From: an uncultured Erysipelotrichaceae bacterium
GTDB lineage: Bacteria > Bacillota_I > Bacilli_A > RFN20 > CAG-826
Assembly (NCBI GenBank): GCA_902802905.1
Contig: CADCNT010000002.1
Coordinates: 79,879 to 143,878, forward strand
Direction: 5' to 3'
Length of the DNA: 64,000 bases
A program made the position numbers and the translations under genes. The notes beneath the pieces were generated by a model. That model was given only the letters and a program-made list of their open reading frames with translations, searched no databases and was not told the DNA's origin. Below, one piece after another: positions 3,696 to 49,825 of this stretch (its first letter is position 1; every line of letters starts with the position of its first letter).

Positions 3696-4175
3696 ATGAA
3701 ATTAAGAGTGGCTCCCTGGAGAATTGTGTGGCGATTCCTTGTCGTCTTTTTAGTAATCACTATCATCTTGTTTTTAAGCACATCTGCCGTCTATTTTGAT
3801 ATTGATCTTGAAACTTGGACTTGGACTCCAAAACCATGGGAATTCACCCAAGTTTTCATCATTATTGTTTTAGGAGTTGTCTTTGTTACTTTCCTAGTTA
3901 TGTCTTTGCTTTTTTATTATTATAAAATTGAAGACAAATACTTTATTATGAAGCGCTTTGGCAAAGAGTACCAATTCGAATATAAAAACATCGAATTTAT
4001 CGATATTGAAAAGAGCAAGAAAAAAGGACAAGTTATCTTTTATTCCAAGACCGCTAAGATGCGATATATGCTTGGAGATAAGGATGGAATTTTACTGGAA
4101 ACACTTATTAAAAAGTGTCCAGAAACTATGAGTGTAGAAGAATTTAGAAGACGCCATCCAGAGGAAAGATATTAG
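3696..4175 (+). CDS. Hypothetical membrane protein (two TM helices plus a soluble C-terminal domain)
   Basis: ORF track 3621..4175, with an internal ATG at 3696 preferred. Hydrophobic segments VVFLVITIILFLSTSAVYF and FIIIVLGVVFVTFLVMSLLFYYY. No family recognised. Confidence 0.5.
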   Translation: MKLRVAPWRIVWRFLVVFLVITIILFLSTSAVYFDIDLETWTWTPKPWEFTQVFIIIVLGVVFVTFLVMSLLFYYYKIEDKYFIMKRFGKEYQFEYKNIEFIDIEKSKKKGQVIFYSKTAKMRYMLGDKDGILLETLIKKCPETMSVEEFRRRHPEERY

Positions 4176-5136: not shown

Positions 5137-5137
5137 C

Positions 5138-5800
5138 TTAAGCTTTGAGCTTTTCAATTCTTTCTTTGATGTCATCATGACCAAAGATATAAGATCCAGC
5201 CACTAAAACATCGACACCAGCAAGCTTAGCCACTTGCGCGGTTTCATCATTGATTCCACCATCAATTTCGATTAAGACTTTATCAATCTTATTGGTTTCC
5301 ATATAGTTTTTTAAACGGATGATTTTTGAACAAGATTCAGGCATGAATTTTTGTCCGCCAAATCCTGGTTCAACAGACATCACTAAAATCATATCCACTG
5401 AATATAAGAATGGATAAACCTTTTCAATTGGGGTGTTAGGCTTAACGGATAAGCCAGCTTTCGCACCACATTCATGGATTAAATCAATAACTTTAAACAC
5501 TTCAGAATCACTCTTGCATGCTTCGTAATGGAAGGTTAAATAATCTGCTCCGGCTTTAATGAACTCAGGAGCGTACTTATATGGGTCAGAAATCATGATG
5601 TGGACATCATTTATTAGCTTATGAGTATGAGCAATACTTTTTAGAACTGGTTGGCCAAAAGAAATATTTGGCACAAAATGTCCATCCATCACATCAAAAT
5701 GTAGCCACTCTGCTCCACCATCTTCAATCTTTTTAATATCTTCTCCTAAGTGTGAAAAATCAGCGCTTAAGATACTTGGAGCCACGATAATCTTTCTCAT
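5138..5800 (-). CDS. rpe: Ribulose-phosphate 3-epimerase
   Basis: 220 aa. APSILSADFSHLGEDI, FDVMDGHFVPN and EPGFGGQKF are Rpe signatures. Conserved position downstream of rsgA. Confidence 0.9.
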   Translation of the reverse strand: MRKIIVAPSILSADFSHLGEDIKKIEDGGAEWLHFDVMDGHFVPNISFGQPVLKSIAHTHKLINDVHIMISDPYKYAPEFIKAGADYLTFHYEACKSDSEVFKVIDLIHECGAKAGLSVKPNTPIEKVYPFLYSVDMILVMSVEPGFGGQKFMPESCSKIIRLKNYMETNKIDKVLIEIDGGINDETAQVAKLAGVDVLVAGSYIFGHDDIKERIEKLKA

Positions 5801-33792: not shown

Positions 33793-35298
33793 TTATATAA
33801 TAACTCTCGCTGAAATGCACCTTGAGTTCGCTTTAGACAAAAATCCATACTTCGATTTAAGTGGTTCTTCATTAGAACCTTTTATTTTATAAATAATCTC
33901 GATTTTATCTTTATAGATAATTATCTTCTCAACGAATAAATCAATCATTCGTTTTAGGACATCTCTATCCTTGGTTTTAAGTGTCTCTCGGAAATACTTG
34001 AATGCATCCTTTAGTAGTTGTTTGTCTACTGGTTTGTTATCTTGTACTTCACAAGTGGCAAGTTCCATCTCGAGTCTAGAGATATCACCACTAATGGAGA
34101 TGTTTCTTTCATAATAGACATCCTTATCCAACTTTCCATCAAGATAGATATCCAATAGTCTATCTTTTTTATTTTTCAGTTTTCGAATCTCTTTTTCAAG
34201 TGATTCTCGTTTTGTCGGTTCTCCGCCACTTTTTTGTTTGTTTAGGTGAATTATCCATTCATCGACCATTTTGTCGGAAAAAAGGTCATTTGTAATTGAA
34301 AGAAAGATAATCTCTTCTAATCGGTCACGATTGATTGTGGATGGTTTCATATCACAAATGCCATGAGTGTGACCAGTACAACGGTATGCAAGGTAAACAC
34401 TATCTTTGTATGTGACTGAATGACCAGTATAGTGAGAACCACATTCACCACACCAAAGAACTCCAGTCAGTAAGAAGTCATTTTCCTTATGTCTCCTAAA
34501 GATTCTTTTCTTGGATTCGAGTTTGGAGTTGGCACTAATCCAGACATCATAAGAAACAATTGGATCACAAACATTATCGACAATAATTGGTTCATCACTC
34601 TTGGATGCATAAGTGTATGTTCCATAGTAGATTGTGTTACGAATAATCTTTTTAAGAGAGATGATTTCTAGGTTGGCACTTCGAGTTCCTTTAACTCCAC
34701 GATTCTTCAAGTCGGTACAAATAGCAGTTAAGGTATCTCCTTGGATGACACGAGAAAAAATCTCTTGGATAATTGGTGATTCATCTTGGTTAATAATAAA
34801 CTTGCCTTCTTCGTTGATGTCATATCCTAAAGGTCGAGTAGAACAAGACAAACCTTTTCTTGCTCGTGCATGTAAACCTTTTTTAGTTTCTCTTGATAAA
34901 TTAGATGAATAATACTCCGCCATACCTTCTAGAACTGATTCAAGGATGATGGTTTCTGGAGTGTCATCAAGTTTTTCCAAGACTGATATTACCTTGACTC
35001 CATTATCTTTAAGTATCTTCTTATAAAAGGCAAAGTCATATCTATTACGAGAGAATCTATCTAACTTATGAATAATGATAAAGTCGAATTGATGTTTTTC
35101 CGAATCTTTAATCATTCGTTGAAAGTTTTTTCTTTCATCAGTGGTTGCACTCTTGGCTTCATCGATGTATTCACCGACAAGTTCAAAATTCTCTTTGTTA
35201 CAAAATTCTTTGATGGCAAAGAGTTGTGCTTCTATCGAATATCCATCTCGTTGGTTTTCGGAAGAGAATCGGCAATAGGCAACTGCTCTCTTAATCAT
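33793..35298 (-). CDS. Large serine recombinase (phage integrase)
   Basis: 501 aa. N-terminal resolvase domain AVAYCRFSSENQRDGYSIEAQ, recombinase domain, zinc ribbon CGECGSHY...RCTGHTHGIC, then a coiled coil. Confidence 0.9.
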   Translation of the reverse strand: MIKRAVAYCRFSSENQRDGYSIEAQLFAIKEFCNKENFELVGEYIDEAKSATTDERKNFQRMIKDSEKHQFDFIIIHKLDRFSRNRYDFAFYKKILKDNGVKVISVLEKLDDTPETIILESVLEGMAEYYSSNLSRETKKGLHARARKGLSCSTRPLGYDINEEGKFIINQDESPIIQEIFSRVIQGDTLTAICTDLKNRGVKGTRSANLEIISLKKIIRNTIYYGTYTYASKSDEPIIVDNVCDPIVSYDVWISANSKLESKKRIFRRHKENDFLLTGVLWCGECGSHYTGHSVTYKDSVYLAYRCTGHTHGICDMKPSTINRDRLEEIIFLSITNDLFSDKMVDEWIIHLNKQKSGGEPTKRESLEKEIRKLKNKKDRLLDIYLDGKLDKDVYYERNISISGDISRLEMELATCEVQDNKPVDKQLLKDAFKYFRETLKTKDRDVLKRMIDLFVEKIIIYKDKIEIIYKIKGSNEEPLKSKYGFLSKANSRCISARVII

Positions 35299-35689
35299 TG
35301 TTTCTCTCCTTGTAAATGTTTGACATAAGAAGTGTTTTAGTCAAACCATCTTTATTCATACAAAGCAAGTTCTCAATTATGTTGAAGAGAAGAAGTTGTT
35401 CTTCATCAAGATAAGATGAATCAGTTTGTTTTTGGAGTTTCAAACGATTCGAATTACATAACAATACTAGAGACTCTTTGAAACCTCCATGAATATCAAT
35501 TAAATCTTCTCCTAATAACTCGGATGGATAACAATGAAGAGTGTTTGCCAAGATAATTGCAACTCTATAAGTCATCTTAACTCTATTCGTTTCTATGTGT
35601 GCAATTAAAGACCGTTCAATGCCACTTATATCAGCAAGTTCATATTGGGATAAATTATGTTCTTTACGGATTCTTTTAAGATTGTTCAT
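35291..35689 (-). CDS. XRE-family HTH repressor, paralogue A
   Basis: 132 aa. N-terminal HTH LSQYELADISGIERSLIAHIE. About 60% identical over the first 75 aa to the adjacent gene. Confidence 0.75.
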   Translation of the reverse strand: MNNLKRIRKEHNLSQYELADISGIERSLIAHIETNRVKMTYRVAIILANTLHCYPSELLGEDLIDIHGGFKESLVLLCNSNRLKLQKQTDSSYLDEEQLLLFNIIENLLCMNKDGLTKTLLMSNIYKERNND

Positions 35690-36084
35690 TGTTTCGTTTC
35701 CTTATCTAAATTATTTATTATTAGAACTACTTTCATTAGATTGTCATCATCAAGATTTAATAATCCGAGTATGGCATTATAAAGCATTTGTTCTCTCTTA
35801 TCGAAATTTCCACTTTGCAATTTTTGAATCATATCAACTGCATTAGAATCACATAATGCTCTTATCGATTCTTCAAATCCACCATGTATGGCAATTAAAT
35901 CTTCTCCAAGAATTTCGTTTGGGTAACAATGAAAAAAGTTTGCCAAGATAATTGCAACTCGATAAGTCATCTTTGCAGTGCCAAGTTCGAGTTGAGCAAT
36001 CAACGAACGAGATATTTTTGTTTTATTAGCTAGTTCTCTCTGGGATAATCCAGAACGAGTTCTAATTTCCTTCAAATTATTCAT
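35686..36084 (-). CDS. XRE-family HTH repressor, paralogue B (CI-like position)
   Basis: MNNLKEIRTRSGLSQRELANKTKISRSLIAQLE. ATG 36084 with an AAAGGAAAA RBS (track start 36156 rejected). ATGA overlap with paralogue A. Confidence 0.75.
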   Translation of the reverse strand: MNNLKEIRTRSGLSQRELANKTKISRSLIAQLELGTAKMTYRVAIILANFFHCYPNEILGEDLIAIHGGFEESIRALCDSNAVDMIQKLQSGNFDKREQMLYNAILGLLNLDDDNLMKVVLIINNLDKETKQ

Positions 36085-36110
36085 AATTTCCGATTTTCCT
36101 TTGCACAAAT

Positions 36111-36176
36111 ATAATAACAACTTGGTTAATTTTTTGCAACAAAGTGGTTGACACATTTTATTATCTTTGGTTTAAT
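36111..36176. promoter_or_regulatory. Divergent back-to-back promoters of the lysis/lysogeny switch
   Basis: Leftward: TTGCAA (36139-36134), 17 nt, TATTAT (36116-36111). Rightward: TTGACA (36148-36153), 17 nt, TTTAAT (36171-36176). Confidence 0.5.
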
Positions 36177-36219
36177 ATAATCGAGTTGTACAAAAATTCA
36201 ACCAAAAGGAGACTCTAGT

Positions 36220-36657
36220 ATGAAGAACTGGAAATGGAAAAAAGACTATGGTGATGGTCAAGAAACTGATGATTCAGTCTTATGGATCGATGGCAAACCG
36301 ACCAATAACTATGTATCTGGGTATGGATATTACACTGCCTATATTGATGGTGTAGAATTCGGATATATCTTTGATACCTTAAAAGAAGCCAAACAAGAAG
36401 TCGAAGAACAACTCGACTTACACGAGTTCGATTTCAAGGTTGGTGACAAAGTCAATGCAACATTCCATATATATGGAAGTCATAAAGTCATAGGTGTTGT
36501 AACCGAAGTTTCCAAGAACGAACATGGGTTAGATGGCACTTGGGTTTCTATCAAAGTTACTGATGGAGATAGAAAAGATAAGTCTATTGACTTAATGTTT
36601 CAATATGGAAATTTGAATATTATGTGTCCAATAAGAGATGTGAAACCTTGTATCTAA
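36220..36657 (+). CDS. Hypothetical early protein (first rightward gene)
   Basis: 145-aa ORF with an AAAGGAG RBS. No family recognised. Confidence 0.55.
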   Translation: MKNWKWKKDYGDGQETDDSVLWIDGKPTNNYVSGYGYYTAYIDGVEFGYIFDTLKEAKQEVEEQLDLHEFDFKVGDKVNATFHIYGSHKVIGVVTEVSKNEHGLDGTWVSIKVTDGDRKDKSIDLMFQYGNLNIMCPIRDVKPCI

Positions 36658-36692
36658 AGATACAAATTCATATCTTTTAGTTATATTCTAGT

Positions 36693-36711
36693 AAATAACT
36701 AGTAGTTATTT
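36693..36711. promoter_or_regulatory. Perfect 19-bp palindrome AAATAACTA-G-TAGTTATTT upstream of the cro-like gene (candidate operator)
   Basis: 9-bp arms that are exact reverse complements, 24 nt upstream of ATG 36735. Confidence 0.4.
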
Positions 36712-36734
36712 GGCAAATGAAGAAAGGAGAGTTT

Positions 36735-36953
36735 ATGGGTAAGAACGAGAAGAAATTGGCAAAGATTGACTCTAACAAAGTTCGTGCCGCCTTACTTGAA
36801 AAACACATGACAAGAGAAGATTTGGCAAAACATCTTGGAATCCACAAAGTCACTTTAGATAGAAAGTTATGTGGTGCAAGAAATTGGCAACTTGATGAAG
36901 TTTTAACAATGGTCAAATTATTCGATAAACCTCTTGAATTTTTTTTGGAGTAA
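36735..36953 (+). CDS. Small HTH DNA-binding protein (Cro/XRE-like)
   Basis: 72 aa. MTREDLAKHLGIHKVTLDRKL helix-turn-helix. GAAAGGAG RBS. Confidence 0.65.
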   Translation: MGKNEKKLAKIDSNKVRAALLEKHMTREDLAKHLGIHKVTLDRKLCGARNWQLDEVLTMVKLFDKPLEFFLE

Positions 36954-37002
36954 GTGGTTAAAATTTCAACCAAGTTATTATTAAAGAAAAGGAGACAATT
37001 CT

Positions 37003-37284
37003 ATGTCGGAAAATCAAATCTTTGAACTCACAAGCAGAGAGTTCGAAACAATGGTTCGTGAATATCAACTGAAGTTTGTTAGTCACGATAAAAAATGGGG
37101 TGGTTGTTTCATTTACTGCAATGAGTACAACACTCGTAAAGTTCTTGGTATTTCAGTCAAGGTCACTCAATGGATTGCCATCGATGACACTCAAGGAAAC
37201 TTCACTATGAGAGTTTTCAAGAAAAGAAGAGATGCAGTCAATTGGTTGATTAAGAATGCCAATGGCAAAACATGTAGGTACTAA
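37003..37284 (+). CDS. Hypothetical phage protein
   Basis: 93-aa ORF with an AAAGGAGA RBS. Confidence 0.55.
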   Translation: MSENQIFELTSREFETMVREYQLKFVSHDKKWGGCFIYCNEYNTRKVLGISVKVTQWIAIDDTQGNFTMRVFKKRRDAVNWLIKNANGKTCRY

Positions 37285-37348
37285 AAATGACTCCTACAAA
37301 CCTCCAAATTCAATTCGTTAGTCAAATACTCGATGACTATACGAAAAA

Positions 37349-37367
37349 CCTACCACGAACGAAAGGA
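37349..37367 (+). repeat. 19-nt element CCTACCACGAACGAAAGGA, copy 1 (5' UTR of the gene starting at 37378)
   Basis: Identical to 39323-39341. It ends 10 nt before the ATG and contains the likely SD. Confidence 0.8.
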
Positions 37368-37377
37368 ACAACGAAAG

Positions 37378-37917
37378 ATGGGAAAAAAGTTAGAACGAAA
37401 TGCAGTGGGTTTAACCACTCGACAAGCAAGAACTCACGATTTAATAGTCAAGAATAGTGAGTTAGGGAGAAAAACTCCAATTGATGAAATCATCGATAAT
37501 TATCCATACGATGCCGAAACTCGTAGAGATGGATATATCAAAAACACAAGTGCCAGAACACACCATCCTTGTATTCAAGTCTATGAAGATATTGATGCAT
37601 TAAATATGAATCTAGGAATCCATAAAGTGCATCTATGGGATAAAGAATACAACTTCTGGATTTCTCACGATATAGAGGAAGTTAAGGCATTTTGTAAACC
37701 ACTTTATGAGAGACAAGGCAAGAAGAAACTTTGGAAACAAGGAATCCTAATGTTAAAAGCAAGGAGACATGGACAAATGAGATTAAAGTTTGAATCCGAA
37801 TCCGAAGCTAGAGAGTATTGGGAGACATTCATTGATTCCATTAAGGGTGAATTAGTCGATGAACTTATAAAGGAAGGAGAATCGGAAGATGGCAAAGAGA
37901 AGGATGTTCTCAACTGA
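37378..37917 (+). CDS. Hypothetical phage protein
   Basis: ORF track 37333..37917. ATG 37378 is preferred because the shared 19-nt RBS-containing element precedes it. Confidence 0.5.
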   Translation: MGKKLERNAVGLTTRQARTHDLIVKNSELGRKTPIDEIIDNYPYDAETRRDGYIKNTSARTHHPCIQVYEDIDALNMNLGIHKVHLWDKEYNFWISHDIEEVKAFCKPLYERQGKKKLWKQGILMLKARRHGQMRLKFESESEAREYWETFIDSIKGELVDELIKEGESEDGKEKDVLN

Positions 37918-38782
37918 AATAGTTAGAAGTGATGCATTCTTGGACTTACCAGTTAGTAGTAGAGAATTATATTTCCAACTTGGAATGGACACTGATGATA
38001 GAGGATATATTCCAAATGCCAAATCAATCATTCGTGTCATAGGTGCAAACATAGGTGATTTAGAACCACTTATCAATAAAGGATTCTTGATGTTAAGAGG
38101 TGAAACACTGATGTTACAAAAACACTTTAGGATCAATAACACAATTAGGTCGGATAGATTCAAAGAAACTGAATACATCGATGACTTAAAGAAGTTATTT
38201 ATCAAAAGTAACGGTGTCTACACTGATGACTCAACCAAGGGAAAACCTACTCCATTGGTGCTTGGTATACCAAGTGGATACCAAATGGATACCAATGGGT
38301 TACCCCAATTAAATATAAGTAAAGATAATTTAATTAAAGATAATTCAAGTAAAGAAATAGATATAACTAGATATAACGAGATAAAAGCAAATGGATTTGC
38401 CGGAGAGTTGTTCTTGAAATTAGTCGATTCTGGTTATGTCTCGTTATATGAACTCGACACTAACGATTATATAAAGTTCCTTAAAGAACTATTAAGTCAA
38501 TATGAAGTAGTCGATATCAAGATTAAAGTCGAATACTTCTTGAGAGTAACTTGTCACTATCTACCAATCGGTAAAGACAAACAAGACAAACCTATATTCG
38601 GTTATAGGTACAAAGAAGAGAATCAAATTGGTAATAAGTTTCTTTACTTCAAAACCACTATTACTAATGCATTCAATCCTAAAGAGTATCTAACTGAACA
38701 AGAGCAGCTAGAACTCCAAAAGATAATGGATGAACTTGGTCAAGAAGATACTGACACCGATGATGACTCACTTCCATTCTAA
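37889..38782 (+). CDS. Phage replisome organizer / replication initiator
   Basis: The N-terminus MAKRRMFSTEIVRSDAFLDLPVSSRELYFQLGMDTDDRGYI is typical of the replisome-organizer N-terminal domain. Acidic C-terminus. Confidence 0.7.
   Translation: MAKRRMFSTEIVRSDAFLDLPVSSRELYFQLGMDTDDRGYIPNAKSIIRVIGANIGDLEPLINKGFLMLRGETLMLQKHFRINNTIRSDRFKETEYIDDLKKLFIKSNGVYTDDSTKGKPTPLVLGIPSGYQMDTNGLPQLNISKDNLIKDNSSKEIDITRYNEIKANGFAGELFLKLVDSGYVSLYELDTNDYIKFLKELLSQYEVVDIKIKVEYFLRVTCHYLPIGKDKQDKPIFGYRYKEENQIGNKFLYFKTTITNAFNPKEYLTEQEQLELQKIMDELGQEDTDTDDDSLPF
38320..38377. repeat. AT-rich direct-repeat cluster inside the replisome-organizer gene (candidate phage ori)
   Basis: TAAAGATAATT at 38320 and 38335. Perfect tandem TAGATATAAC x2 at 38358-38377. 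Confidence 0.4.
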
Positions 38783-38784
38783 TT

Positions 38785-39318
38785 ATGGGTAGAAGAAGGA
38801 AGAAAAGAAGAACTCTTCGGACAACTGAAGAGATACCAAAGGAAATAGCAACACCTCCACATAGACTCACATTTGAAACTGACTCAAAGCTAATTAAAGT
38901 CACTGCCAACATTAGAGATTGCTTAAGAACTAGAAGTATTAGGTCTTGTCTCAAATGTTGTAGGTGGCACGAGTGTAAGACTAGATTGGAGGGGATTAAG
39001 GTGGATGAGATTATCTTGAAAGTATCTTGGCAAGATTTTAAGAAGATTGAACGAGATGAAATTCGAGAGATTAGATCACTCACCAATCTAGCTACATTTC
39101 CACTACTGATATACCTCTATGTAGAACCTCCTTATTACGAAAGAGATAAGAAAGGTGAAATCAAAGGTGTCATCGAAGTAGTCAAAGATAAAACAACGAA
39201 TCAATGGAAGATAGACATGTTCTGGTATCCATTGATATCAGTGATTCCATACTTCATGAGATATGCCGCCAAGGATTGGACTTGGAGTTGGATATCACGA
39301 GAAAACAACAAAAAATAA
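38785..39318 (+). CDS. Hypothetical phage protein (basic N-terminus, Cys-rich segment)
   Basis: This is the only open frame here. 177 aa. CLRTRSIRSCLKCCRWHEC. Confidence 0.4.
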   Translation: MGRRRKKRRTLRTTEEIPKEIATPPHRLTFETDSKLIKVTANIRDCLRTRSIRSCLKCCRWHECKTRLEGIKVDEIILKVSWQDFKKIERDEIREIRSLTNLATFPLLIYLYVEPPYYERDKKGEIKGVIEVVKDKTTNQWKIDMFWYPLISVIPYFMRYAAKDWTWSWISRENNKK

Positions 39319-39322
39319 AGTT

Positions 39323-39341
39323 CCTACCACGAACGAAAGGA
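39323..39341 (+). repeat. 19-nt element CCTACCACGAACGAAAGGA, copy 2 (5' UTR of the C5-MTase gene)
   Basis: Identical to 37349-37367. It ends 6 nt before ATG 39348. Confidence 0.8.
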
Positions 39342-39347
39342 GAATTT

Positions 39348-40763
39348 ATGAGAGATGATGATTTTTGTCAGTTAAACCTCTTTAATTCGTTTAGAGATTA
39401 TAAGAAGTTTGATTCTAACAAGAAATTATTGGTGGTTGAATTCTTCTCCGGGATTGGTGCTACTGCACAAGGATTAAAGAATCTCGGAATCAAATTCACT
39501 CATCATCGAACATGTGAATGGTGTTCAGTAAGTATCAAAGCATACAACATGATTCACATGAAAGACACTACTGATTACTCCAAAGATTTGACCAAGGATC
39601 AACTAATTGCATACCTTGATGGGAATATCTCAACTGATTGGAACACATTATGCAATGTCAAAAAGCAAAATGAGAAATGGTTGAGAGAGACATATAACAA
39701 TTGCATTGCCACTCATAACATGATGAATATCTCGAATGTTCATGGAGAAGATTTGGGAATTCCTTATTCCGATGATTATGAAACATTTTGTTCTTACTCA
39801 TTTCCATGCCAAGACTTGTCTCTTGCTGGAAAGATGAAAGGAATGGAAGAAGGTTCTGGAACACGAAGTTCACTACTCTTTGAGTTCTTACGAATATTAA
39901 GAGAAATAGATGAACTCTATAAACAAGGTAAAAGTGGAAGAATCACTTATCTCTTGATGGAGAATGTACCAGAAGTCATTGGTTCAAAAAATGTGAAGCA
40001 ATTCGTTAAGTTTGAAGAAGAACTAACGAAACTCGGATATACAAATTTTGGTGGAATCTTGAATGGCAAGAATTACTGCATACCACAAAACCGTAGGAGA
40101 TTCTTCTTATTCTCGATTCTTGGTGATTATTCATATGACTTTCCTAAAAGAAGAGAACTGAAATATCACCTTAAGGACTTTTTAGAAGATGAAGTTGATG
40201 AAAAATACTACTTGTCACAAAGAATGATTAACTTCTTCATGTCCAACACCGAGAAACAAGCCGAGAGCGGCAATGGGATTAAAAGCAAATCCATTGCCGC
40301 TACTGATGAAGGTTCGATTGCTCGAACCATTACCACTAAAGCTGGTAGTCGAATGGATGATAACTTCATTATCTACGAAGATGAAGAAGATGACTCCGAA
40401 GAAGTGACAACTCATCAAGACTTAAAAGAAACTCTTGAGGGGGGGGTTATTGAAGAAGGAGACTTTGTCGACACATACAATCGAACGATTAAGAAAGATG
40501 GATGCAGTGGCACTATCACAACTAGGATCAGTGAATGCAATCATCAATATGTAGTTGTGAAAGGCAAAACTATCAAAATCAAGAATGCCACAAAAAAAGG
40601 GTATATCGAAGCTGAAGTCGGTGATGCAATCGATATCTCTGGAAGAATGCAATATCACCGAGGAACGGTTCAAAAAGGAATCAGCCAAACAATCACTACA
40701 ATGGGCGGAGATAATGTTGCAGTGGTTGTAGAAGATAAAGGAGACAACGATGAAGAAAAATGA
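39348..40763 (+). CDS. DNA (cytosine-5) methyltransferase, large ORF: motifs I-VIII plus three TRD-like units
   Basis: FFSGIGA (I), SFPCQDLS (IV), MENV (VI), QNRRRFF (VIII). Then ARTITTK, SGTITTR and SQTITTMGG units. The start is set at 39348, not 39204. Confidence 0.85.
   Translation: MRDDDFCQLNLFNSFRDYKKFDSNKKLLVVEFFSGIGATAQGLKNLGIKFTHHRTCEWCSVSIKAYNMIHMKDTTDYSKDLTKDQLIAYLDGNISTDWNTLCNVKKQNEKWLRETYNNCIATHNMMNISNVHGEDLGIPYSDDYETFCSYSFPCQDLSLAGKMKGMEEGSGTRSSLLFEFLRILREIDELYKQGKSGRITYLLMENVPEVIGSKNVKQFVKFEEELTKLGYTNFGGILNGKNYCIPQNRRRFFLFSILGDYSYDFPKRRELKYHLKDFLEDEVDEKYYLSQRMINFFMSNTEKQAESGNGIKSKSIAATDEGSIARTITTKAGSRMDDNFIIYEDEEDDSEEVTTHQDLKETLEGGVIEEGDFVDTYNRTIKKDGCSGTITTRISECNHQYVVVKGKTIKIKNATKKGYIEAEVGDAIDISGRMQYHRGTVQKGISQTITTMGGDNVAVVVEDKGDNDEEK
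40439..40446 (+). repeat. G8 homopolymer inside the C5-MTase large ORF (in frame, encodes part of EGGV)
   Basis: gaGGGGGGGGtt, read directly. This is the longest G run seen in the window. Confidence 0.95.
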
Positions 40764-41151
40764 GTATGTTGGAGTGTTCGACATTAAAGAATCCGATACA
40801 TTTCGACCAACACTTGAATCAAGAATCCATTTAGACTCACCAGTCTCCAAGACATTAACTTGTCGAGAGGATAGCTGCGGTGTCATCGAGAGAGAGAGAG
40901 AGAGTAGACTCCGAATCCGAAAACTCACTCCGAGAGAATGTTTCCGCCTTATGGGTTTCGATGATGACTCATTTAATTCTCTTGAAGGTCAATTCTCAAA
41001 CAACAATCTCTATCATCTTGCCGGAGACTCAATCATCAGTGTTGTTATCTCATACATATGTCTAGGTCTTATGGAAGATGAAAAAGAAGCTGAAAGCAAA
41101 ATTCAAAAATATGTCGATACATTAAAGGAGGACAAAGATGGAAACAAATAA
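40750..41151 (+). CDS. DNA (cytosine-5) methyltransferase, small ORF: fourth TRD-like unit plus motifs IX-X
   Basis: SKTLTCRED, RKLTPRECFRLMGFDD (IX), AGDSI (X). It has its own AAAGGAG RBS 7 nt upstream and overlaps the large ORF by 14 nt. Confidence 0.8.
   Translation: MKKNEYVGVFDIKESDTFRPTLESRIHLDSPVSKTLTCREDSCGVIERERESRLRIRKLTPRECFRLMGFDDDSFNSLEGQFSNNNLYHLAGDSIISVVISYICLGLMEDEKEAESKIQKYVDTLKEDKDGNK
40888..40904 (+). repeat. (GA)8 tract inside the C5-MTase small ORF (in frame, encodes ERERE)
   Basis: GAGAGAGAGAGAGAGAG, read directly. It lies about 15 nt upstream of motif IX. Confidence 0.95.
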
Positions 41152-41876
41152 GATTTACTTCGGTGATGCATATGAACTCATTAAGGAAATCCCGGATAAA
41201 TCAATCGACTTAATTTATACTGATCCACCTTATGACTTCCATAGTGGAACTGCAGTATCTGGTGGAATCTTCAAAGATAGAGAATGCAAACCATATCAAG
41301 ATGTGGTTGATGCCAAATTAAATGCTGGAATAGACAACTCAATCTTGGATGAATTTGTAAGAATACTAAAGCATATATATATATATATGGTGCAACAAGT
41401 CTCAAATTCCGTTCTATCTAAATTACTTCTTGTCTTATCCAAATATAAGTTTCGAGATTCTAACATGGCACAAGAAAAATCCATCACCAATTACAAAAAA
41501 CACATTCTTACCAGATACCGAATACTGCCTTATGTTTCGAGAAAAGGGTGTGTGCCTATTAAATGATGGATATGAATTAAAACATAAGTATTACATCTCA
41601 AGTACCAACAAAGATGACAAAGATGATTACTTGCATCCGACAATCAAACCAATTGAATTTGTCGAAAAGCACATTGCTCATTCTACTCAAGTCGGTGATA
41701 TCGTATTTGATCCATTCTTGGGTAGTGGCACTACTGCACTTGCAGCTAAACATCTTGGAAGAAAATATATCGGATTTGAAATCAATGAGACTTATTACAA
41801 AATCGCGGTTGACCGTTTACAAGGAATCAATCAAAAAGGAGAGATGAATCTCTTCGACATAATGGGAGATGAATGA
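41138..41876 (+). pseudogene. Beta-class DPPY (N6-adenine-type) DNA methyltransferase, frame-shifted at an (AT)8 tract (phase-OFF allele)
   Basis: Frame 1 carries IYTDPPYDF up to the tract. From the tract on, the +1 frame reads IYIWCNKSQ...ILTWHKKNP...HPTIKP...FDPFLGSGTTALAA. (AT)9 would give one 246-aa ORF. Confidence 0.85.
41373..41388 (+). repeat. (AT)8 tract at the frameshift point of the DPPY methyltransferase
   Basis: gcATATATATATATATATgg, read directly. Confidence 0.95.
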
Positions 41877-42040
41877 TGGCAAAGAAATATCTAGAGTTCA
41901 CTGATATAGAACTCATCCAAGAAATTCATAGAATTGAACATTTACTTACAACTAATAAGAAACCACTAACACATAGGCAAAATAAAATCTACTTACAAAA
42001 GCTGCATAACGAATGGGGAAGGAGAAAAAATGGCAAATAG
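41876..42040 (+). CDS. Small hypothetical ORF (54 aa), below the ORF-track cutoff
   Basis: My translation: MAKKYLEFTDIELIQEIHRIEHLL...WGRRKNGK. ATGA-type overlap with the MTase stop. Confidence 0.3.
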   Translation: MAKKYLEFTDIELIQEIHRIEHLLTTNKKPLTHRQNKIYLQKLHNEWGRRKNGK

Positions 42041-42260
42041 ACAACAATTACTCGGAAGAGTCATCGATGGATATTGGGAAATCGTTAAAGCAATTAAGAC
42101 TGGAAATTCCCGAAACTACAATTACATTCTCCGAAACCAATATAACGGAACTGAAGTTCAAGTTGGTGGTACAACGGTTAGATCAATCATTAAAGGAGAA
42201 ACTAGTGTCTCCAAAATCGTATCAAGAAGAATCAAAAAAGGAGAAAGAAGAAATGGATAA
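42030..42260 (+). CDS. Hypothetical small phage protein
   Basis: 76 aa with a GGAGAAAAAA RBS before the ATG. Confidence 0.45.
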   Translation: MANRQQLLGRVIDGYWEIVKAIKTGNSRNYNYILRNQYNGTEVQVGGTTVRSIIKGETSVSKIVSRRIKKGERRNG

Positions 42261-43156
42261 TGAATTACTACTCTTCGATAGATTAGAAATCATTAAAACC
42301 ACTATCAATAAATATGGAATAGATAATTTCTACTTATCGTTCTCTGGTGGTAAAGATTCCACTATTCTCCATCACTTGATAGATATGGCACTTCCGGGAA
42401 ATAGAATTCCAAGAGTGTTTGTAAACACTGGAATCGAATACAACATGATTGTTCAGTTTGTTAAGGATATGGCAGCTAAAGATGACCGATTCGTAATCAT
42501 TGCACCAAGTAAACCAATTAAAAAGGTGTTAGAAGAATTCGGTTATCCGTTCAAATCCAAAGAACACTCACTACGAGTTTACCAATTCAACAAAGGTCAA
42601 AACTCGAATTACATCAAGAAATACATATCTGGTTATGACCATAATGGCAAAGAATCGACATTTGTATGTCCAAAGATTCTCAAGTATCAGTTTGAGGAAA
42701 GAGGTAAATACAACTACTCAAATCTATGTTGCCAAAAACTGAAGAAAGAACCAGTTCATAAATGGGAGAAGGAAAACCATAAGTCCATTGCGATGACTGG
42801 TATGAGAGCGGAGGAAGGTGGCAATCGAGCAAGACTCGGATGCATCATCACCGACTCTAAAGGAAGATTGAAGAGATTCCATCCACTCATCAAAGTCGAT
42901 GAACAATGGGAAGATTGGTTATTAGAGAGAGAGAGAGAGAATAGCACTCGCACCACTCTATTGCCAACCATTCAACTTCAAAAGGACCGGATGTAAAGGA
43001 TGCCCGTTCAGTCTTGAACTCCAAGAACAACTTGACATCATGCAAATCTATCTCCCGGCTGAACGAAAACAATGTGAATTCATTTGGGAGTATGTCTACA
43101 AGGAATATCGAAGAATCGGATATCGATTGAAAGACAAAATCACTATTTGGGATTAA
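42253..43156 (+). pseudogene. PAPS/APS-reductase-like PP-loop protein (DndC-like fold), frame-shifted at a (GA)8 tract (phase-OFF allele)
   Basis: SFSGGKDS PP-loop and LCCQKLKKEPV in frame 0. After the tract the +1 frame reads IALAPLYCQPFNFKRTGCKGCPF... through to a stop at 43154-43156. The start is set at ATG 42253 (AAAGGAGAAAG RBS). Confidence 0.8.
42924..42940 (+). repeat. (AG)8A / (GA)8 tract at the frameshift point of the PAPS-reductase-like gene
   Basis: ttAGAGAGAGAGAGAGAGAat, read directly. Confidence 0.95.
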
Positions 43157-43170
43157 GGAGACTCAAAAAA

Positions 43171-43578
43171 ATGAAATATCTAAAGGTTCTCACACCGTTA
43201 GAATCAGTCAAAATCTTAAATCATAAAATGGATCAAATCGATTTCTTCTATGAATTGACTGATAAAGATGAAATCTATTTGTTGGTCAGTAACGATGAAA
43301 GATTCGTTCTAGACTATGACTACGATGGAAGTTGGTTTGTCTGGGATAAAAAGGCACACCACTATCCATTCAAAGATATTGAAATGAACAATGGCAAAAT
43401 CGTTGCACACTGCAAAGCTGCCAAAGTTGAAAAGAAAATAATCGGTTCAATCAATTATTACCGAACAAAAATAAAAGACTTAATTGTCTATGACTCTCCA
43501 AAAGATGATGTTGGAGAAATCTTCAAGAAAGATGTTGCACCACAATTCGTGGAAGAAGGAGAAAACGATGGAAGATAG
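43171..43578 (+). CDS. Hypothetical phage protein
   Basis: ATG 43171 preceded by AAGGAG. 135 aa. Confidence 0.5.
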   Translation: MKYLKVLTPLESVKILNHKMDQIDFFYELTDKDEIYLLVSNDERFVLDYDYDGSWFVWDKKAHHYPFKDIEMNNGKIVAHCKAAKVEKKIIGSINYYRTKIKDLIVYDSPKDDVGEIFKKDVAPQFVEEGENDGR

Positions 43579-43891
43579 AATCGAATCAGTTATCAAGAAA
43601 GTCTTATCAATCGAAGATAAGGTTTCCATCAGTGAAGTTGCCACTATGATTCTAGGATCAATTGAGTTATTAAACGATAATTCAGTTTCATTCAAAGAAG
43701 TTAAAGCGGCAATGCCAAGTCAATATAACGGTATTATCAACTCTCTATGTAATACATTCATAGTCAACTGCTTATCACTAGCTGGTGCAAGTAAGGAAGA
43801 GTTGATTCAAGCTGCAAAAGACTTGAAATCAGTAAGAATCGGTATTTCCGAACTCCATATCCGAAAGAAAACCGATAAATATGATGCATAG
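43568..43891 (+). CDS. Hypothetical phage protein
   Basis: ATG 43568 preceded by GAAGGAG. 107 aa. Confidence 0.5.
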   Translation: MEDRIESVIKKVLSIEDKVSISEVATMILGSIELLNDNSVSFKEVKAAMPSQYNGIINSLCNTFIVNCLSLAGASKEELIQAAKDLKSVRIGISELHIRKKTDKYDA

Positions 43892-43908
43892 GAAAGGAGG
43901 AATTGCCG

Positions 43909-44172
43909 ATGAGAATAAAACTGCATCCAGAGATTGTTCTATCAATCGATGATATTCCAATCATCACCAAGTCTATTAGAGATAGGAAAATCCTCTTAAA
44001 GACTTTAGCTGAAGAACTCGGATGGTCAAAGTCAAAACTCTATTATGTGATTCGTGGCAAAGGAAATGCCAAAAAACTCTTGGATCACTTAAAAGAGAAA
44101 TATCAAATCATAGTGCCACTTACATATGAAGGTGACATATCAGTGGTCGATTCAAACATTCTCACCTATTAA
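43909..44172 (+). CDS. Hypothetical small protein, possible HTH
   Basis: AGGAGG sits 8 nt before ATG 43909. LKTLAEELGWSKSKLYYVIRGKG looks like a helix-turn-helix. Confidence 0.45.
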   Translation: MRIKLHPEIVLSIDDIPIITKSIRDRKILLKTLAEELGWSKSKLYYVIRGKGNAKKLLDHLKEKYQIIVPLTYEGDISVVDSNILTY

Positions 44173-44183
44173 GGAGACAAAAA

Positions 44184-44930
44184 ATGGAAAACGAAGAAAG
44201 AGCATTATCAATATTGAACCTTTGTGGGAACATCAAAGCTGATATGCACGAATCAACTAATAAATATGAAATATTACAACTTAATGTTAACAACGAATAT
44301 TTCTATTACTGCACTTTATTCAAATTAAGTGACAAGCAATCATTACTTACAATTTTTGGGGAAGAAAAAGCACATGGACTATTTTGCAAAGGTGAAAGAG
44401 TCTTTGGAGGAGAGATGTTCCAGTCAATTAAAGATTGTTTGGATCAGTCTTATCACTTCTTAACCAAAATGCATTTCGAACAAGAAGTCGATGCCGAACA
44501 AACTCGACTCAAAATCGCACAAGAGAGTGATGTCTATTATGAAGATGCACTATATCCGACATCTAAAACTAGAGAAGCATTCTTACTTGAAATATCTGAA
44601 TGGGATAGTGATTTAGAAAATTTAGAACCAATTATGGATTTTAGTGTTCAAGCATACATTTGTTATCATGCATTAGCTAGATTGTTTGGAAAAGAAAAGA
44701 CACCAAAACTAATCAATCGAAAAGGGATGGAAGTTGAGTATGTCGAATGGGTATGTTTACCAAAAGAAAAATATTTCGATGGTATTCATGCAGTGGTATA
44801 CGATGAATCCGAAATATACCATCTTCAAGATTGCTATGGTGAAGTCTTATATGTCTTTAGATGTGATTCCGGTGCAAAGGCACTTGAAATTGCCAAAGGA
44901 TGGTTAGAAGAACATGGAAAGACTAATTAA
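44184..44930 (+). CDS. Hypothetical phage protein
   Basis: 248-aa ORF with an AAGGAGA RBS. Confidence 0.5.
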   Translation: MENEERALSILNLCGNIKADMHESTNKYEILQLNVNNEYFYYCTLFKLSDKQSLLTIFGEEKAHGLFCKGERVFGGEMFQSIKDCLDQSYHFLTKMHFEQEVDAEQTRLKIAQESDVYYEDALYPTSKTREAFLLEISEWDSDLENLEPIMDFSVQAYICYHALARLFGKEKTPKLINRKGMEVEYVEWVCLPKEKYFDGIHAVVYDESEIYHLQDCYGEVLYVFRCDSGAKALEIAKGWLEEHGKTN

Positions 44931-45267
44931 AGATGGAGATATCATTCTCGATGGTACACTACCACGATATCAAAAAGAGAAAAATGCATTTCTTAAATTA
45001 TCATCATTTGAAGATTTCGAACAAGAATTCGGAATCAGTCTAGTAAAACTTCTTGCAGCCAAAAAAGTCTACTACATGGATTGGAATCATGATTGTTCTG
45101 GATTCGTTATAAAAGAGACTCACGAATTATTTATAAATCTTACTAATAGAACCATTGAATATTATGAGAACGAATATAGTGAATTCACATTTGATTTAGA
45201 AATCCAAAACTATGGTAAGAAAGATATATTTGGTGGATGGGCATTTACAAAGGAGGAATTAGAATGA
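44914..45267 (+). CDS. Hypothetical phage protein
   Basis: 117-aa ORF overlapping its neighbours. Confidence 0.45.
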   Translation: MERLIKDGDIILDGTLPRYQKEKNAFLKLSSFEDFEQEFGISLVKLLAAKKVYYMDWNHDCSGFVIKETHELFINLTNRTIEYYENEYSEFTFDLEIQNYGKKDIFGGWAFTKEELE

Positions 45268-45797
45268 CACAAAAAGAAAAAGAATTCCTTGAAGGATATC
45301 AAGACGCAATGATTCAGTTCGGACAAAGAATCGCACATTGTGATAGAAAAGGCATTGGACCAAATTGGTATTACGAAGTAGCTCAAGACATGGTATATGA
45401 TGATGAACCATCAAAACAATTCTTTTGCCACGATAAACATGGGAATACTGCTTATCGAGTGATTGTGACTGAACGAGATAAAGGTTGGCACAAAGCAGTT
45501 GATGAATTATATGACCGATTCGTTCTTCGTATAGGTCGCAAGACACATTATAGAGACAAAAACAATAAAACAATTTGTGTTGGTGATGTTGTACTTGTTG
45601 AAAATGAAAAATTCTCATTTCTAGGATGCATTGTAATGAATGAAAAGGATAAAATCGAAATTCATTATGATGAAACATTTGATCCATCGAAACACGAAGA
45701 ATTTGAATTATCGGTTTTTAGAAGAAGTGAAAGAGAAATTGTTTCTCCTTGGAACGATTCGAAAGAGCATAGAAAGAAGGTGTATGAAACATTATGA
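45264..45797 (+). CDS. Hypothetical phage protein
   Basis: AGGAGG sits 7 nt before ATG 45264. 177 aa. Confidence 0.5.
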   Translation: MTQKEKEFLEGYQDAMIQFGQRIAHCDRKGIGPNWYYEVAQDMVYDDEPSKQFFCHDKHGNTAYRVIVTERDKGWHKAVDELYDRFVLRIGRKTHYRDKNNKTICVGDVVLVENEKFSFLGCIVMNEKDKIEIHYDETFDPSKHEEFELSVFRRSEREIVSPWNDSKEHRKKVYETL

Positions 45798-49063: not shown

Positions 49064-49315
49064 TGTTCCACACGAAATGGCATAGGGGGGGTTGAAAATT
49101 CGAAAAAAGGTCGATTTTTGACACCGGGTGTGGACCACAAAAATATATATTCCAAAAATGGATAAAAAAGGACAAATGAGAGGAAATTTGAACAAATTTC
49201 AGCAACTAACTCCATCTTCATTAGAATCTCCTTATTTATAACTAAATACTAGCTGAAGTTGGTTGCTTAAAATTGTTGGAAAATCGTAGATCAAAAATTT
49301 ATAAAGGAGGAGTCT
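49064..49315. other. Non-coding gap between HNH and terS: candidate cos region
   Basis: 252 nt without a credible ORF. Locally GC-rich elements: a G7 run at 49085-49091 and the palindrome ACACC-G-GGTGT at about 49121-49131. Confidence 0.35.
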
Positions 49316-49825
49316 ATGGCTGGGAGAAAACCGAAAGTCACTGGAAGTGGTCATCGTACCAAAAAGGAAAAGTCGGCTTATAAAGAGATGACTGAATCTC
49401 TCCGTACTCCAAGCACTATGCCTTGTCCGAAATGGTTGACCAAACAAGGTCAACAAATCTTCCGTAAGTTGAAGAAGCAGTATAACGAGATGCCCGGCAA
49501 TCCGTTATGTAATCTTGATATCACTCCATTGGCGGTTCTTGCTAATGCGATGGATATATATATTGAAGCTCATAAGGAGTTTGTAGAAGGTGGATCACAT
49601 CTAACCGTAATACAAATTTCAAAGGGCAGTGAAAAAGAGGTCATCAATCCACTTGTTAAAACAATGAATGAACAAGCTGCGATTGTAGCCAAGTTGTCCG
49701 ACCAACTATGTCTCACTCCAATCGGTAGAATGAGAATGGGTGTCAATGCATCAAAAACACCGAAAGATGAATTCTTGGATATCTTCAATGATCCAGATGA
49801 AAACGAAGATGTGGATGATGGCTAA
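49316..49825 (+). CDS. Terminase small subunit (P27 family)
   Basis: MAGRKPKVTG... N-terminus and LCLTPIGRMRMG C-terminal motif, typical of the P27 family. Confidence 0.8.
   Translation: MAGRKPKVTGSGHRTKKEKSAYKEMTESLRTPSTMPCPKWLTKQGQQIFRKLKKQYNEMPGNPLCNLDITPLAVLANAMDIYIEAHKEFVEGGSHLTVIQISKGSEKEVINPLVKTMNEQAAIVAKLSDQLCLTPIGRMRMGVNASKTPKDEFLDIFNDPDENEDVDDG

Follow-up and report, generated by a model that had tools for sequence, protein, structure and literature searches.

Phasevarions rest on methyltransferases (MTases) that vary in phase, namely Type III mod or Type I hsd enzymes of Haemophilus, Neisseria, Helicobacter, Moraxella and Mycoplasma, and simple-sequence tracts that gate MTase genes are their hallmark. 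A tract lies in the MTase reading frame, slippage turns the gene ON or OFF, and tract length is polymorphic among near-identical strains. The locus described here, a prophage in an uncultured rumen bacterium with a short repeat tract inside each DNA-modifying enzyme gene, resembles phasevarions in these respects, slippage being the presumed cause of switching. However, its genes are apparently carried by a temperate phage in an early lytic operon, its C5 and beta-class N6/N4 MTases are Type II-like orphans that lack a restriction partner, and four or five seemingly independent switches lie in 3.8 kb, one of which would gate a PP-loop enzyme that is not an MTase. Campylobacter phages reportedly carry hypermutable polyG tracts on receptor-binding and structural genes; there, as presumably here, phage-encoded tracts diversify phenotypes within the phage population, whereas at the present locus DNA-modification genes are targeted and dinucleotide tracts are found as well. 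The multispecific C5 MTases of Bacillus phages known from the Trautner laboratory's literature (M.SPRI, M.phi3TI, M.rho11sI and M.BssHII) are also phage-borne, with tandem target-recognition modules between motifs VIII and IX. Putative modules of this kind occur here too, but in two genes and with repeat tracts at the module boundaries. The two-gene layout is that of M.AquI, in which the variable region is divided between two overlapping ORFs, one for a large subunit that also has motifs I-VIII and one for a small subunit that also has motifs IX-X; in contrast, each subunit here has its own repeat switch, and the pair is known from sequence. A literature search found no account of a phage module of this kind, in agreement with an earlier, sequence-only reading of this DNA, which was not aware of a described system that gates a PP-loop/Fe-S enzyme together with two MTases. 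We consider it likely that the block is a set of self-modification (anti-restriction) genes which a temperate phage carries in its early lytic operon and which vary in phase by slipped-strand mispairing.

The window, that is the whole stretch of 64,000 nucleotides that was analysed, comprises an integrated prophage and 33 kb of host DNA. The host is an uncultured rumen bacterium of the class Bacilli, and the carrier is a temperate phage. All four tracts are on the forward strand within the 3.8 kb of modification genes, and the remaining 60 kb is without any. G8 (40439-40446) lies in ORF1 of the C5 MTase and (GA)8G (17 nt, 40888-40904) in ORF2, both in frame. (AT)8 (41373-41388), encoding HIYIYIW, lies in the N6/N4 MTase gene, and (AG)8 (42924-42939, equivalent to (GA)8 at 42925-42940), encoding (ER)n, in a length-variable segment of a PAPS-reductase-like gene. 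These two genes are out of frame and therefore OFF in the window copy, the ON lengths of both tracts being 6, 9 and 12 units; by frame arithmetic, a change of +1 or -2 units gives proteins of 246 (244) and 301 (299) aa, respectively. In an in-silico series, length changes toggled between full-length and truncated products, and natural products of both kinds are on record. A scan of the whole 64-kb window found no other dinucleotide tract of more than five units, the next longest being (AT)5 at 49554-49563 within terS. The only other G run of at least 7 is a non-coding G7 (49085-49091), and C runs of 6 or more were not found in the window. (GA)8 is seen twice, against 0.00 expected from 100 dinucleotide-preserving shuffles. 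The sequence-only reading had placed four tracts at these positions, one or more in every enzyme gene (the split C5 MTase, the N6/N4 MTase and the PAPS-like gene), two in frame and two out, and had noticed no further dinucleotide tract of at least 6 units, with the (AT)5 as the next longest, and no other long G run than the G7; all of this was borne out, as was its proposal that one added unit restores full-length proteins. Its description of the tracts as having 8 units is correct for the window copy but a coincidence of that copy, as relatives carry 5-12 units.

Slipped-strand mispairing at such tracts during replication leads to gain or loss of units far faster than point mutation. Such changes would put the codons beyond the tract into or out of frame. 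Slippage of (GA)n in ORF2 would remove motifs IX-X and silence the C5 MTase, slippage of (AT)n would silence the N6/N4 MTase and that of (AG)n the PAPS-reductase-like PP-loop enzyme, while slippage of the G tract would truncate the large C5 subunit beyond its first target-recognition module and inversion of a hairpin loop would rewrite five residues of that module. The phage population would thus become a mixture of modification genotypes. The benefit might be bet-hedging: modified progeny could escape classical restriction-modification systems, and unmodified progeny could escape modification-dependent (Type IV or PT-sensing) nucleases as well as the cost or toxicity of the enzymes. The modification genes lie in a rightward operon downstream of a cI-like/Cro region and replication genes. 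They are packed tightly behind a DnaD-like replication gene and no promoter or terminator signal was found among them, which points to an early lytic operon. A restriction enzyme gene was not detectable near the MTases by Pfam, by PHROG or among the neighbour genes; thus, both MTases look like orphans. It could be argued that the block is a prophage-borne phasevarion, with the MTases expressed in the lysogen and random switching re-programming host gene expression, as Mod phasevarions do in Haemophilus and Neisseria. The gating tracts would fit, the window copy is an integrated prophage, and a prophage MTase, PamA, can change the phenotype of its host (PMC13076061). However, genes that sit in an early operon and show no separate promoter-like signal are expected to be kept repressed in the lysogen, gene regulation does not explain why a PP-loop enzyme is switched in a similar manner, and the same tracts vary in contigs that resemble free phage genomes (34-37 kb). 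Host gene regulation by the module is therefore unlikely. The sequence-only reading had left open whether the phage modifies itself or its lysogen; of the two, the location in the lytic early operon makes modification of phage DNA likelier than epigenetic control of the lysogen.

The sequence-only reading had suggested a comparison of homologous prophages to find out whether tract lengths vary between conserved flanks, and alignment clearly showed this for all four tracts. About 16 near-identical contigs carry G7-9, (GA)7-10, (AT)8-10 and (AG)5-9, with (AG)12 in one protein footprint. Contig L017 has 0 mismatches to the window in 11,505 aligned bp, its sole differences being (GA)7, (AT)10 and (AG)9; L018 and L010 are identical to the window save for (AG)9. 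Tract length also differs within pairs whose 865 bp of flanking sequence show 0-1 mismatches, and such pairs occur in at least two lineages. The tracts are thus hypermutable, and their states assort independently: six contigs with several tracts have five different ON/OFF combinations, which fits independent switches. L055 has G7 and L056 has G9 between the same flanking sequences, and L006 has G10 at the same C5 site with motif IX directly after it. G8 is constant in the six closest copies, the variants coming from C5 genes only ~77-85% identical to that of the window. The C5 (GA)n has 7 units in L017, 8 in the window, L007, L009, L018 and L055, 9 in L008 and 10 in L001. (AT)10 is found in L001 and L017; an ON state of the N6 MTase was not found among the three sampled (AT) alleles (8, 10 and 10), which are all OFF. 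Among 14 near-identical contigs, (AG)n occurs with 5, 6, 8 and 9 units, and the P0241 cluster has 12. Ten of the 14 contigs keep the PAPS gene in frame, and the lengths of the ON alleles (6, 9 and 12 units) are whole codons apart. Differences between assemblies suggest that lengths also switch within a clone; the only hint from within one sample is that contigs of ERR3201422 break exactly at the (AT) tract.

Two of the four genes are frameshifted in the window, every sampled N6 allele is OFF, and some relatives can do without the N6 gene (another ORF takes its place in L007, L008 and L055, and it is absent from L009). This would also be expected if the tracts were accidental, neutral slippage hot spots and the frameshifted genes dying pseudogenes of a decaying prophage. 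Such decay is very improbable. The repaired frames are under strong purifying selection, with dN/dS values of 0.007-0.26 (N6 0.06, PAPS 0.007-0.018, C5 0.12-0.26, of which ORF1 0.12-0.17), which argues that the genes are not pseudogenes; the N6 value was measured against L005, and both copies compared are OFF. Between lineages at a dS distance of 0.6-0.7 (~0.65), G8 and (GA)8 are both still uninterrupted. The (AT) tract is made of synonymous codons, as the 87% orthologue in L057 yields an identical peptide from codons that interrupt the repeat; perfect tracts are thus maintained through synonymous codon choice. Further points against decay are the excess of in-frame alleles, the spacing of ON alleles by 3 units, the confinement of the tracts to the modification genes, and the independent origin of tracts at different sites in homologues across phyla. 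Homopolymer and dinucleotide tracts are error-prone and some contigs end at the (AT) tract, but it is hardly credible that the lengths are mere sequencing or assembly errors in short-read metagenome assemblies. Independent assemblies from different assemblers (ENA, Logan, IMG/VR) have consensus lengths as much as 3-4 units apart; the lengths are discrete, in-frame biased and lineage-consistent, and are matched by truncated and extended proteins recorded by gene callers, the largest cluster having 82 member sequences.

The C5 cytosine MTase is encoded by two overlapping ORFs on the forward strand. ORF1 (39348..40763, 471 aa) is the large subunit and matches PF00145 (E 8e-36, profile positions 24-234) with motifs I (FFSGIGA), IV (FPCQDLS), VI (ENV) and VIII (QNRRR), followed by the target-recognition-like cores T1 SIARTITTKAGS, T2 CSGTITTRISECN and T3 ISQTITTMGGDN; it aligns with residues 6-274 of M.MpeI. 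ORF2 (40750..41151, 133 aa), the small subunit, matches PF00145 at profile positions 270-318, aligns with M.MpeI residues 328-383 and holds a T4 core VSKTLTCREDSCG, motif IX RKLTPRECFRLMGF and motif X (GDSI). It overlaps the stop of ORF1 and has its own Shine-Dalgarno sequence (AAAGGAG) 6 nt upstream of the ATG. The motif set is complete across the pair, with I-VIII on ORF1 and IX-X on ORF2. The split is conserved in L001, L007, L018 and L055, and the split type, ending in GVVVKDEK, accounts for at least 30 of 80 C5 homologue clusters. The enzyme is thus predicted to be a natural two-subunit MTase, split inside the variable region. It appears to carry several target-recognition modules (TRDs) with tracts at the module boundaries, G8 lying between T1 and T2 and the (GA)8 between T4 and motif IX. 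As a sequence pattern, four T[IL]T-type cores are spaced by ~55 aa, and the same modules recur in C5 homologues in shuffled order and number, from one to six or so. G7 or G9 truncates ORF1 just after T1, and truncated products (P0003, P0005) are on record. The two tracts of the C5 enzyme probably do not act as ON/OFF switches of the same kind. In a two-subunit enzyme with apparent multiple modules, the G tract most likely removes downstream modules and not activity, while (GA)n in ORF2 is the putative master switch that controls motifs IX-X. Fragment complementation can make split C5 MTases functional (PMC3404938), therefore some cases of frameshift and restart, as in L069, may keep activity. 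In related phages, the homologous genes have different tracts at different positions. In L072 and L009, G10 and G9, respectively, are found inside a target-recognition core. L069 carries (AG)5, (GA)9 and (AC)8 in its C5 gene and (GA)10 in its N6 gene.

Minute hairpin-loop inversions are known from plastid DNA, and intragenic invertons have reportedly been described. A candidate switch of this type lies within ORF1 (40266..40301, forward strand), with 11-bp inverted arms, AGCGGCAATGG and CCATTGCCGCT, and a 14-nt loop that encodes GNG-IKSKS-IA in the window or, when inverted, GNG-FAFNP-IA. The loop of L001/L005 and L055 is the exact reverse complement of that of the window, L007, L008, L017 and L018, and both orientations occur across the family (30 vs 8 clusters). 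In the distant L069, complementarity of the arms is kept through compensatory change. A short loop, perfect inverted arms and both orientations in relatives are shared with the inversions mentioned and with template-switch mutations (PMC10710096), in contrast to which the present loop is coding, is in frame both ways and has arms kept by compensatory change; at 14 nt, it is too small for recombinase synapsis. We infer that the hairpin loop is a fifth switch, rewriting five residues of the T1 module. The sequence-only reading had counted up to 2^4 modification states; the four tracts stand, but the number is an undercount because of at least one more switch, and the C5 tracts are probably not equivalent.

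A more far-reaching interpretation, possible but rather doubtful, is that phase variation makes the C5 enzyme a combinatorial MTase with multiple specificities which, together with the switchable N6/N4 and PP-loop enzymes, represents a general phage strategy. ORF2 would then supply motifs IX-X in trans, so that frameshifts at the boundary tracts would not kill the enzyme; G or GA frameshifts would delete downstream modules or turn a fused enzyme into a split one, and inversion of the hairpin loop would toggle module T1 in frame. If this were true, one phage genotype would give rise to a set of methylation specificities, beyond ON and OFF, and the recurrent tracts in PAPS-like and MTase genes would reflect a strategy widely shared by phages of the gut and rumen, across bacterial phyla.

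Under the main reading of switchable self-modification, the genes of the two remaining enzymes would be turned ON or OFF. The beta-class N6/N4 DNA MTase (41138..41876, forward strand) is frameshifted, and PF01555 (E 1.6e-30) is matched only after +AT. The repaired protein aligns with the profile over positions 1-220 of 221; its DPPY motif (aa 29-32) is N-terminal to FLGSGTT, which lies near aa 190. The N6 gene of L006 contains (GA)10. Two small overlapping ORFs (55 and 76 aa; 41873..42260, forward strand) separate it from the PAPS-like gene; Pfam and PHROG searches with both gave zero matches, and the 76-aa protein is identical across 15 contigs.

The PAPS-reductase-like PP-loop/Fe-S enzyme (42253..43156, forward strand) is likewise frameshifted and matches PF01507 (E 5e-17) in full length only after +GA. 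Its motifs are SFSGGKDS and CC...CxxC, and SGGKDS, CC and CxxC are invariant in 50 PAPS-like homologues. It matches the phage 'PAPS reductase' family PHROG 424 and, in PADLOC, BrxP (1.5e-15), SspD and DndC. The AF2 model (pLDDT 89) has CysH/APS reductase, TtuA and NcsA as its closest folds. With DndC, SspD, BrxP and PHROG 424 it shares the SGGKDS PP-loop, the Cys-Cys...CxxC pattern, the PAPS/APS-reductase fold and a location amid DNA-modification genes in a variable phage region; unlike DndC, SspD and BrxP, it is a stand-alone protein of 301 aa with no DndD/SspC/BrxC ATPase, nickase or DUF4007 nearby. A Dnd/Ssp/BREX-4 phosphorothioation (PT) system was considered on account of the PP-loop and Fe-S features. 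The partner P-loop ATPase (DndD/SspC/BrxC), which is needed for PT synthesis (PMC12914056), was not found beside the gene, where the neighbours are small ORFs without a family match, and the gene was therefore not assigned to these systems. In PMC13551039 (citing Piel et al., 2022), an anti-defence role is proposed for phage PAPS reductases, with one case reported. PAPS-like genes in unrelated gut prophages also carry repeat tracts, at other sites.

The modification block of the prophage (39348-43156) harbors four simple-sequence tracts, which lie exactly where the sequence-only reading had placed them: G8 (40439-40446), (GA)8G (40888-40904), (AT)8 (41373-41388) and (AG)8 (42924-42939). Its frame arithmetic agrees with our own frame calculation. 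Pfam assigned ORF1 (39348-40763) to the first two-thirds of a C5 methyltransferase (MTase), ORF2 (40750-41151) to the last part of this enzyme and, after repair of the frame by one additional AT or GA unit, respectively, the other two genes to an N6_N4 MTase (41138-41876) and a PAPS-reductase-domain protein (42253-43156). That these tracts stand out from the remaining DNA, as had been read by eye, held in scans of the whole window. The regular-expression scan detected no other dinucleotide tract of more than five units, the longest remaining one being (AT)5 at 49554 in terS, and no C run of at least 6, and the only further long G run, none reaching 8, is a non-coding G7 at 49085. For (GA)8, dinucleotide-preserving shuffles give an expectation of 0.00. 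A general host mutator effect was rejected, as neither the 33 kb of host DNA nor the 26 kb of other phage genes contain such a tract. The G7 (49085-49091) is located 225 nt upstream of terS and is unchanged in length in L066, the sole relative covering it, which belongs to the same clone as contig L017.

It had been proposed to align homologous prophages and to ask whether tract length varies while the flanks stay conserved, and this is what we observed. Contigs encoding exactly identical small neighboring proteins, together with an IMG/VR search, provided approximately 16 near-identical copies. Contig L017 (ENA ERZ27280647) shows 0 mismatches to window positions 33814-45314 over 11,505 bp and three gaps, each at a tract, namely (GA)7, (AT)10 and (AG)9. 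L018 and L010, from one Logan sample, differ from the window only by (AG)9, and both contigs end exactly at the (AT) tract. Overall, the G tract was found with 7, 8 and 9 units (10 in L006), the GA tract with 7, 8, 9 and 10, the AT tract with 8 and 10 and the AG tract with 5, 6, 8, 9 and 12. The (AG) length differs, in two separate lineages, between pairs with 0-1 mismatches per 865 flanking bp, and six contigs spanning several tracts display five different state combinations. Thus, tract mutation is orders of magnitude faster than single-base mutation and each tract mutates independently, which comes close to showing that the tracts are hypermutable switches.

We consider it probable that slipped-strand phase variation, which would diversify the phage's own DNA-modification state, is the best explanation for these tracts. 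Potentially, this is a form of bet-hedging, in which exposure to classical restriction would be weighed against modification-dependent restriction and enzyme cost. The first 33.7 kb of the window are host chromosome and encode PriA, ATP synthase and glycerol kinase; the nearest named match of the host AtpD (92% identity) is labeled 'MAG: Bacilli bacterium'. The prophage starts with a large serine recombinase (integrase) gene on the minus strand (33793-35298); two HTH repressor-like genes come next. The rightward operon then runs from a DnaD-like loader through the modification block to a small tyrosine recombinase, HNH, terS and terL. With this tyrosine recombinase (243 aa, PF00589; 45958-46689), which is part of the early operon, the prophage encodes a further recombinase besides the serine integrase. 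The modification genes are tightly packed, each preceded by an AAAGGAG Shine-Dalgarno sequence, and the promoter/terminator scan found no such signals within the block, the first plus-strand terminator-like site being at 48617. Promoter-like sites were fewer than in shuffles, therefore independent expression of the module is unsupported. This arrangement is consistent with early lytic genes. Near the block, neither a restriction enzyme gene nor a partner ATPase could be detected. The sequence-only reading had proposed that the phage could set the modification states of itself or its lysogen. Of these two, the phage's own DNA is favored; a phasevarion of the lysogen is disfavored by the operon position and we regard it as unlikely. 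All related contigs originate from rumen or gut metagenomes, and a distant BLASTN search of the region against 50,697 GenBank phages yielded a single 100-bp match, thus there is no cultured relative.

Neutral decay of the frameshifted genes is very improbable in the light of dN/dS and of the maintenance of the tracts. With the frames repaired, the N6 MTase has a dN/dS of 0.06 in a comparison of two OFF copies, and the PAPS-like gene one of 0.007-0.018; the two C5 ORFs show values of 0.12-0.26. G8 and (GA)8 are still perfect across lineages at dS ~0.65. In L057, which encodes an 87% orthologue, the peptide HIYIYIW is likewise present but is written with the codons CAC ATA TAT ATC TAC ATA, therefore the perfect (AT)n reflects synonymous choices. 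The (AG) tract is an expansion of a native ERER that is present in many homologues; 10 of its 14 alleles are in frame and whole codons separate the ON alleles. A sequencing or assembly artefact is even harder to credit, since the alleles are discrete, frame-biased and consistent by lineage, and sequencing stutter cannot be the source of differences of up to 3-4 units between independent assemblies. Programmed frameshifting at the tracts, whether ribosomal or transcriptional, was set aside, because a slippery heptamer and a long A/T run are both absent and real length alleles suffice.

The C5 MTase is split and, judging from its sequence pattern, apparently a multi-module enzyme. ORF1 aligns with M.MpeI residues 6-274 (motifs I-VIII), and residues 49-102 of ORF2 align with M.MpeI 328-383 (motifs IX-X). 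ORF2, which overlaps the stop of ORF1, is equipped with a ribosome-binding site of its own, and the split is kept in relatives. The best 80 homologue clusters comprise ~37 single chains with motifs IX-X and 43 without them, most of the latter sharing the natural terminus ...GVVVKDEK. Halves of a C5 MTase can assemble into an active enzyme, as described for M.AquI and fragment complementation (PMC3404938). The region from motif VIII to motif IX contains four target-recognition cores of the T[IL]T type (T1-T4), spaced by ~55 aa, three of them in ORF1 and one in ORF2, and the recognition modules reappear in homologues of 386-771 aa with shuffled order and number. Bacillus phages have multispecific MTases, which this putative module architecture resembles.

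In the window, the tracts are placed at module boundaries, G8 separating T1 from T2 and (GA)8 separating T4 from motif IX. In the single-chain, one-module enzyme of L006, motif IX comes directly after the G tract, and L009 and L072 carry a different G tract inside the T3 core. The coordinates of this G9-G10 tract are 109-117 in L009 and 3796-3805 in L072. In the distant relative L069, a module boundary carries (GA)9, and the ATG behind it starts a new ORF of 126 aa consisting of a recognition module plus motifs IX-X; (AC)8 stands ahead of motif IX. By its sequence, the frameshift together with this ATG would turn a fused C5 enzyme into a split one. The L069 C5 gene contains (AG)5, (GA)9 and (AC)8, and tracts of this contig lie at 3068-3077, 3670-3687, 3808-3823 and 5120-5139. 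Homologous MTase genes of related phages thus bear different tracts at different sites, including (GA)10 in N6 MTase genes (2526-2545 in L006). Truncated database products match predicted frameshifts in the protein clusters P0003, P0005, P0015, P0026, P0029, P0040, P0061 and P0066. Tract footprints (RERE, THTH, GGG) were found in 20/43 clusters without motifs IX-X and in 2/37 single-chain clusters. Presumably, (GA)n of ORF2 acts as the master switch, and a frameshift at the G tract would remove the modules behind it without abolishing the enzyme as a whole. L055 encodes a G7-truncated ORF1 together with an in-frame ORF2.

Beside the four tracts, a hairpin within the C5 MTase gene (40266-40301) is, on comparison of its loop among relatives, a putative fifth switch. 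Its 11-bp perfect inverted arms, AGCGGCAATGG and CCATTGCCGCT, enclose a 14-nt loop, with the sequence GATTAAAAGCAAAT in the window as well as in L007, L008, L017 and L018; L001/L005 and L055 carry its exact reverse complement. Depending on the orientation, the peptide changes from GNG-IKSKS-IA to GNG-FAFNP-IA, both in frame. The window lineage and the L007 lineage each contain both orientations, which family-wide are distributed over 30 vs 8 clusters. The hairpin is located at 6916-6957 in L005, 2443 in L055 and 3413 in L069. The L069 arms, GGTAGCGGAAATGG and CCATTTCCGCTACC, show a C-to-A change that is matched by G-to-T in the opposite arm and entails an Ala-to-Ser replacement, therefore the palindrome is conserved as a DNA element. 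Since shuffles yield ~2 perfect hairpins with arms of at least 10 bp per 64 kb, it is not the presence of the hairpin that makes the case but its observed inversion together with the compensatory change. Because the loop has only 14 nt, template switching at the hairpin is more plausible than a recombinase (compare PMC10710096); the 243-aa tyrosine recombinase probably does not act on it, as so short a loop would not permit synapsis. Whether boundary tracts and hairpin inversion together make a combinatorially re-specifiable split MTase is a tentative idea, possible but on balance doubtful.

The PAPS-like protein matches PHROG 424 ('PAPS reductase') and, in PADLOC, BrxP (1.5e-15), SspD and DndC. 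The PP-loop SGGKDS and the CC...CxxC cysteines are invariant among 50 homologues. In a search of genome contigs, the best homologue of the PAPS-like protein is 64% identical. Because the PDB sequence match was weak (E 0.008), structure prediction and Foldseek were used. For P0242, an 87% homologue, the AlphaFold model (pLDDT 89) is nearest to CysH/APS reductases, with TtuA, NcsA and LarE, Fe-S sulfurtransferases of the PP-loop type, coming next. BrxP makes DNA phosphorothioate and needs BrxC (PMC12914056). In contrast to BREX-4, no BrxC-type partner was detectable beside the PAPS-like gene, which is therefore not filed under Dnd/Ssp/BREX-4. An anti-defence role is proposed for phage PAPS reductases, one of which is reported to aid Dnd evasion (PMC13551039, citing Piel et al. 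2022). Five of the 34 distant homologous loci compared in GTDB genomes contain (AG/GA) tracts of 7-10 units within the PAPS-like gene, all in unrelated prophages: L033 (1254-1267), L036 (6210-6229), L047 (6210-6225), L049 (2312-2327) and L052 (5595-5610), with the MAG labels Elusimicrobia, Eubacteriales, Fimenecus, Rikenellaceae and Lachnospiraceae. These tracts occupy two sites of the gene, other than that in the window, and leave three copies OFF and two ON; repeat gating is therefore recurrent in this gene family. MTase genes neighboring the distant loci carry G8-G9 tracts.

Phase variation of DNA methylation is a known bacterial strategy. Here, a virus, the opponent in the arms race, probably uses the same device, which would govern each enzyme of a phage self-modification block, the PAPS-like one included. 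The literature searched describes bacterial phase-variable MTases, polyG tracts of Campylobacter phages and non-variable prophage MTases; it yielded no phage modification module with multiple repeat-tract gates and no phase-variable PAPS-reductase-like gene, in line with the sequence-only reading, which was aware of no described system with such joint gating of a PP-loop/Fe-S enzyme and two MTases. If confirmed, phages would balance being protected from classical restriction against being exposed to the modification-dependent type, and the cryptic phage 'PAPS reductase' would have a role in DNA modification or anti-defence that is costly under some conditions, for which the tracts would be a first genetic handle. 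Likewise, repeat tracts and a minute hairpin inversion would be able to re-specify modular C5 MTases. Frameshifted MTase and PAPS-reductase genes of gut phages may be switches instead of pseudogenes or errors, which should be considered in annotation.

The slot of the N6/N4 MTase (41138-41876) is mosaic among near relatives. The gene is missing from L009 and is replaced by a 176-aa ORF in L007 (4305-4835), L008 (2951-3481) and L055 (3314-3844); this ORF has an NPPF motif and gave no significant match in the Pfam search. Another variable cassette adjoins the block downstream of the PAPS-like gene, where L009 and L012-L015 carry a DUF5131 (PF07505) gene, ~3.0-3.8 kb into each locus, in place of a 248-aa and a 117-aa ORF. 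Compared with the IMG/VR relative L005, dS is uneven, with 0.21 in the PAPS-like gene (42253-43156) and 0.06-0.08 in the MTase genes (39348-41876), which suggests recent recombination inside the module.
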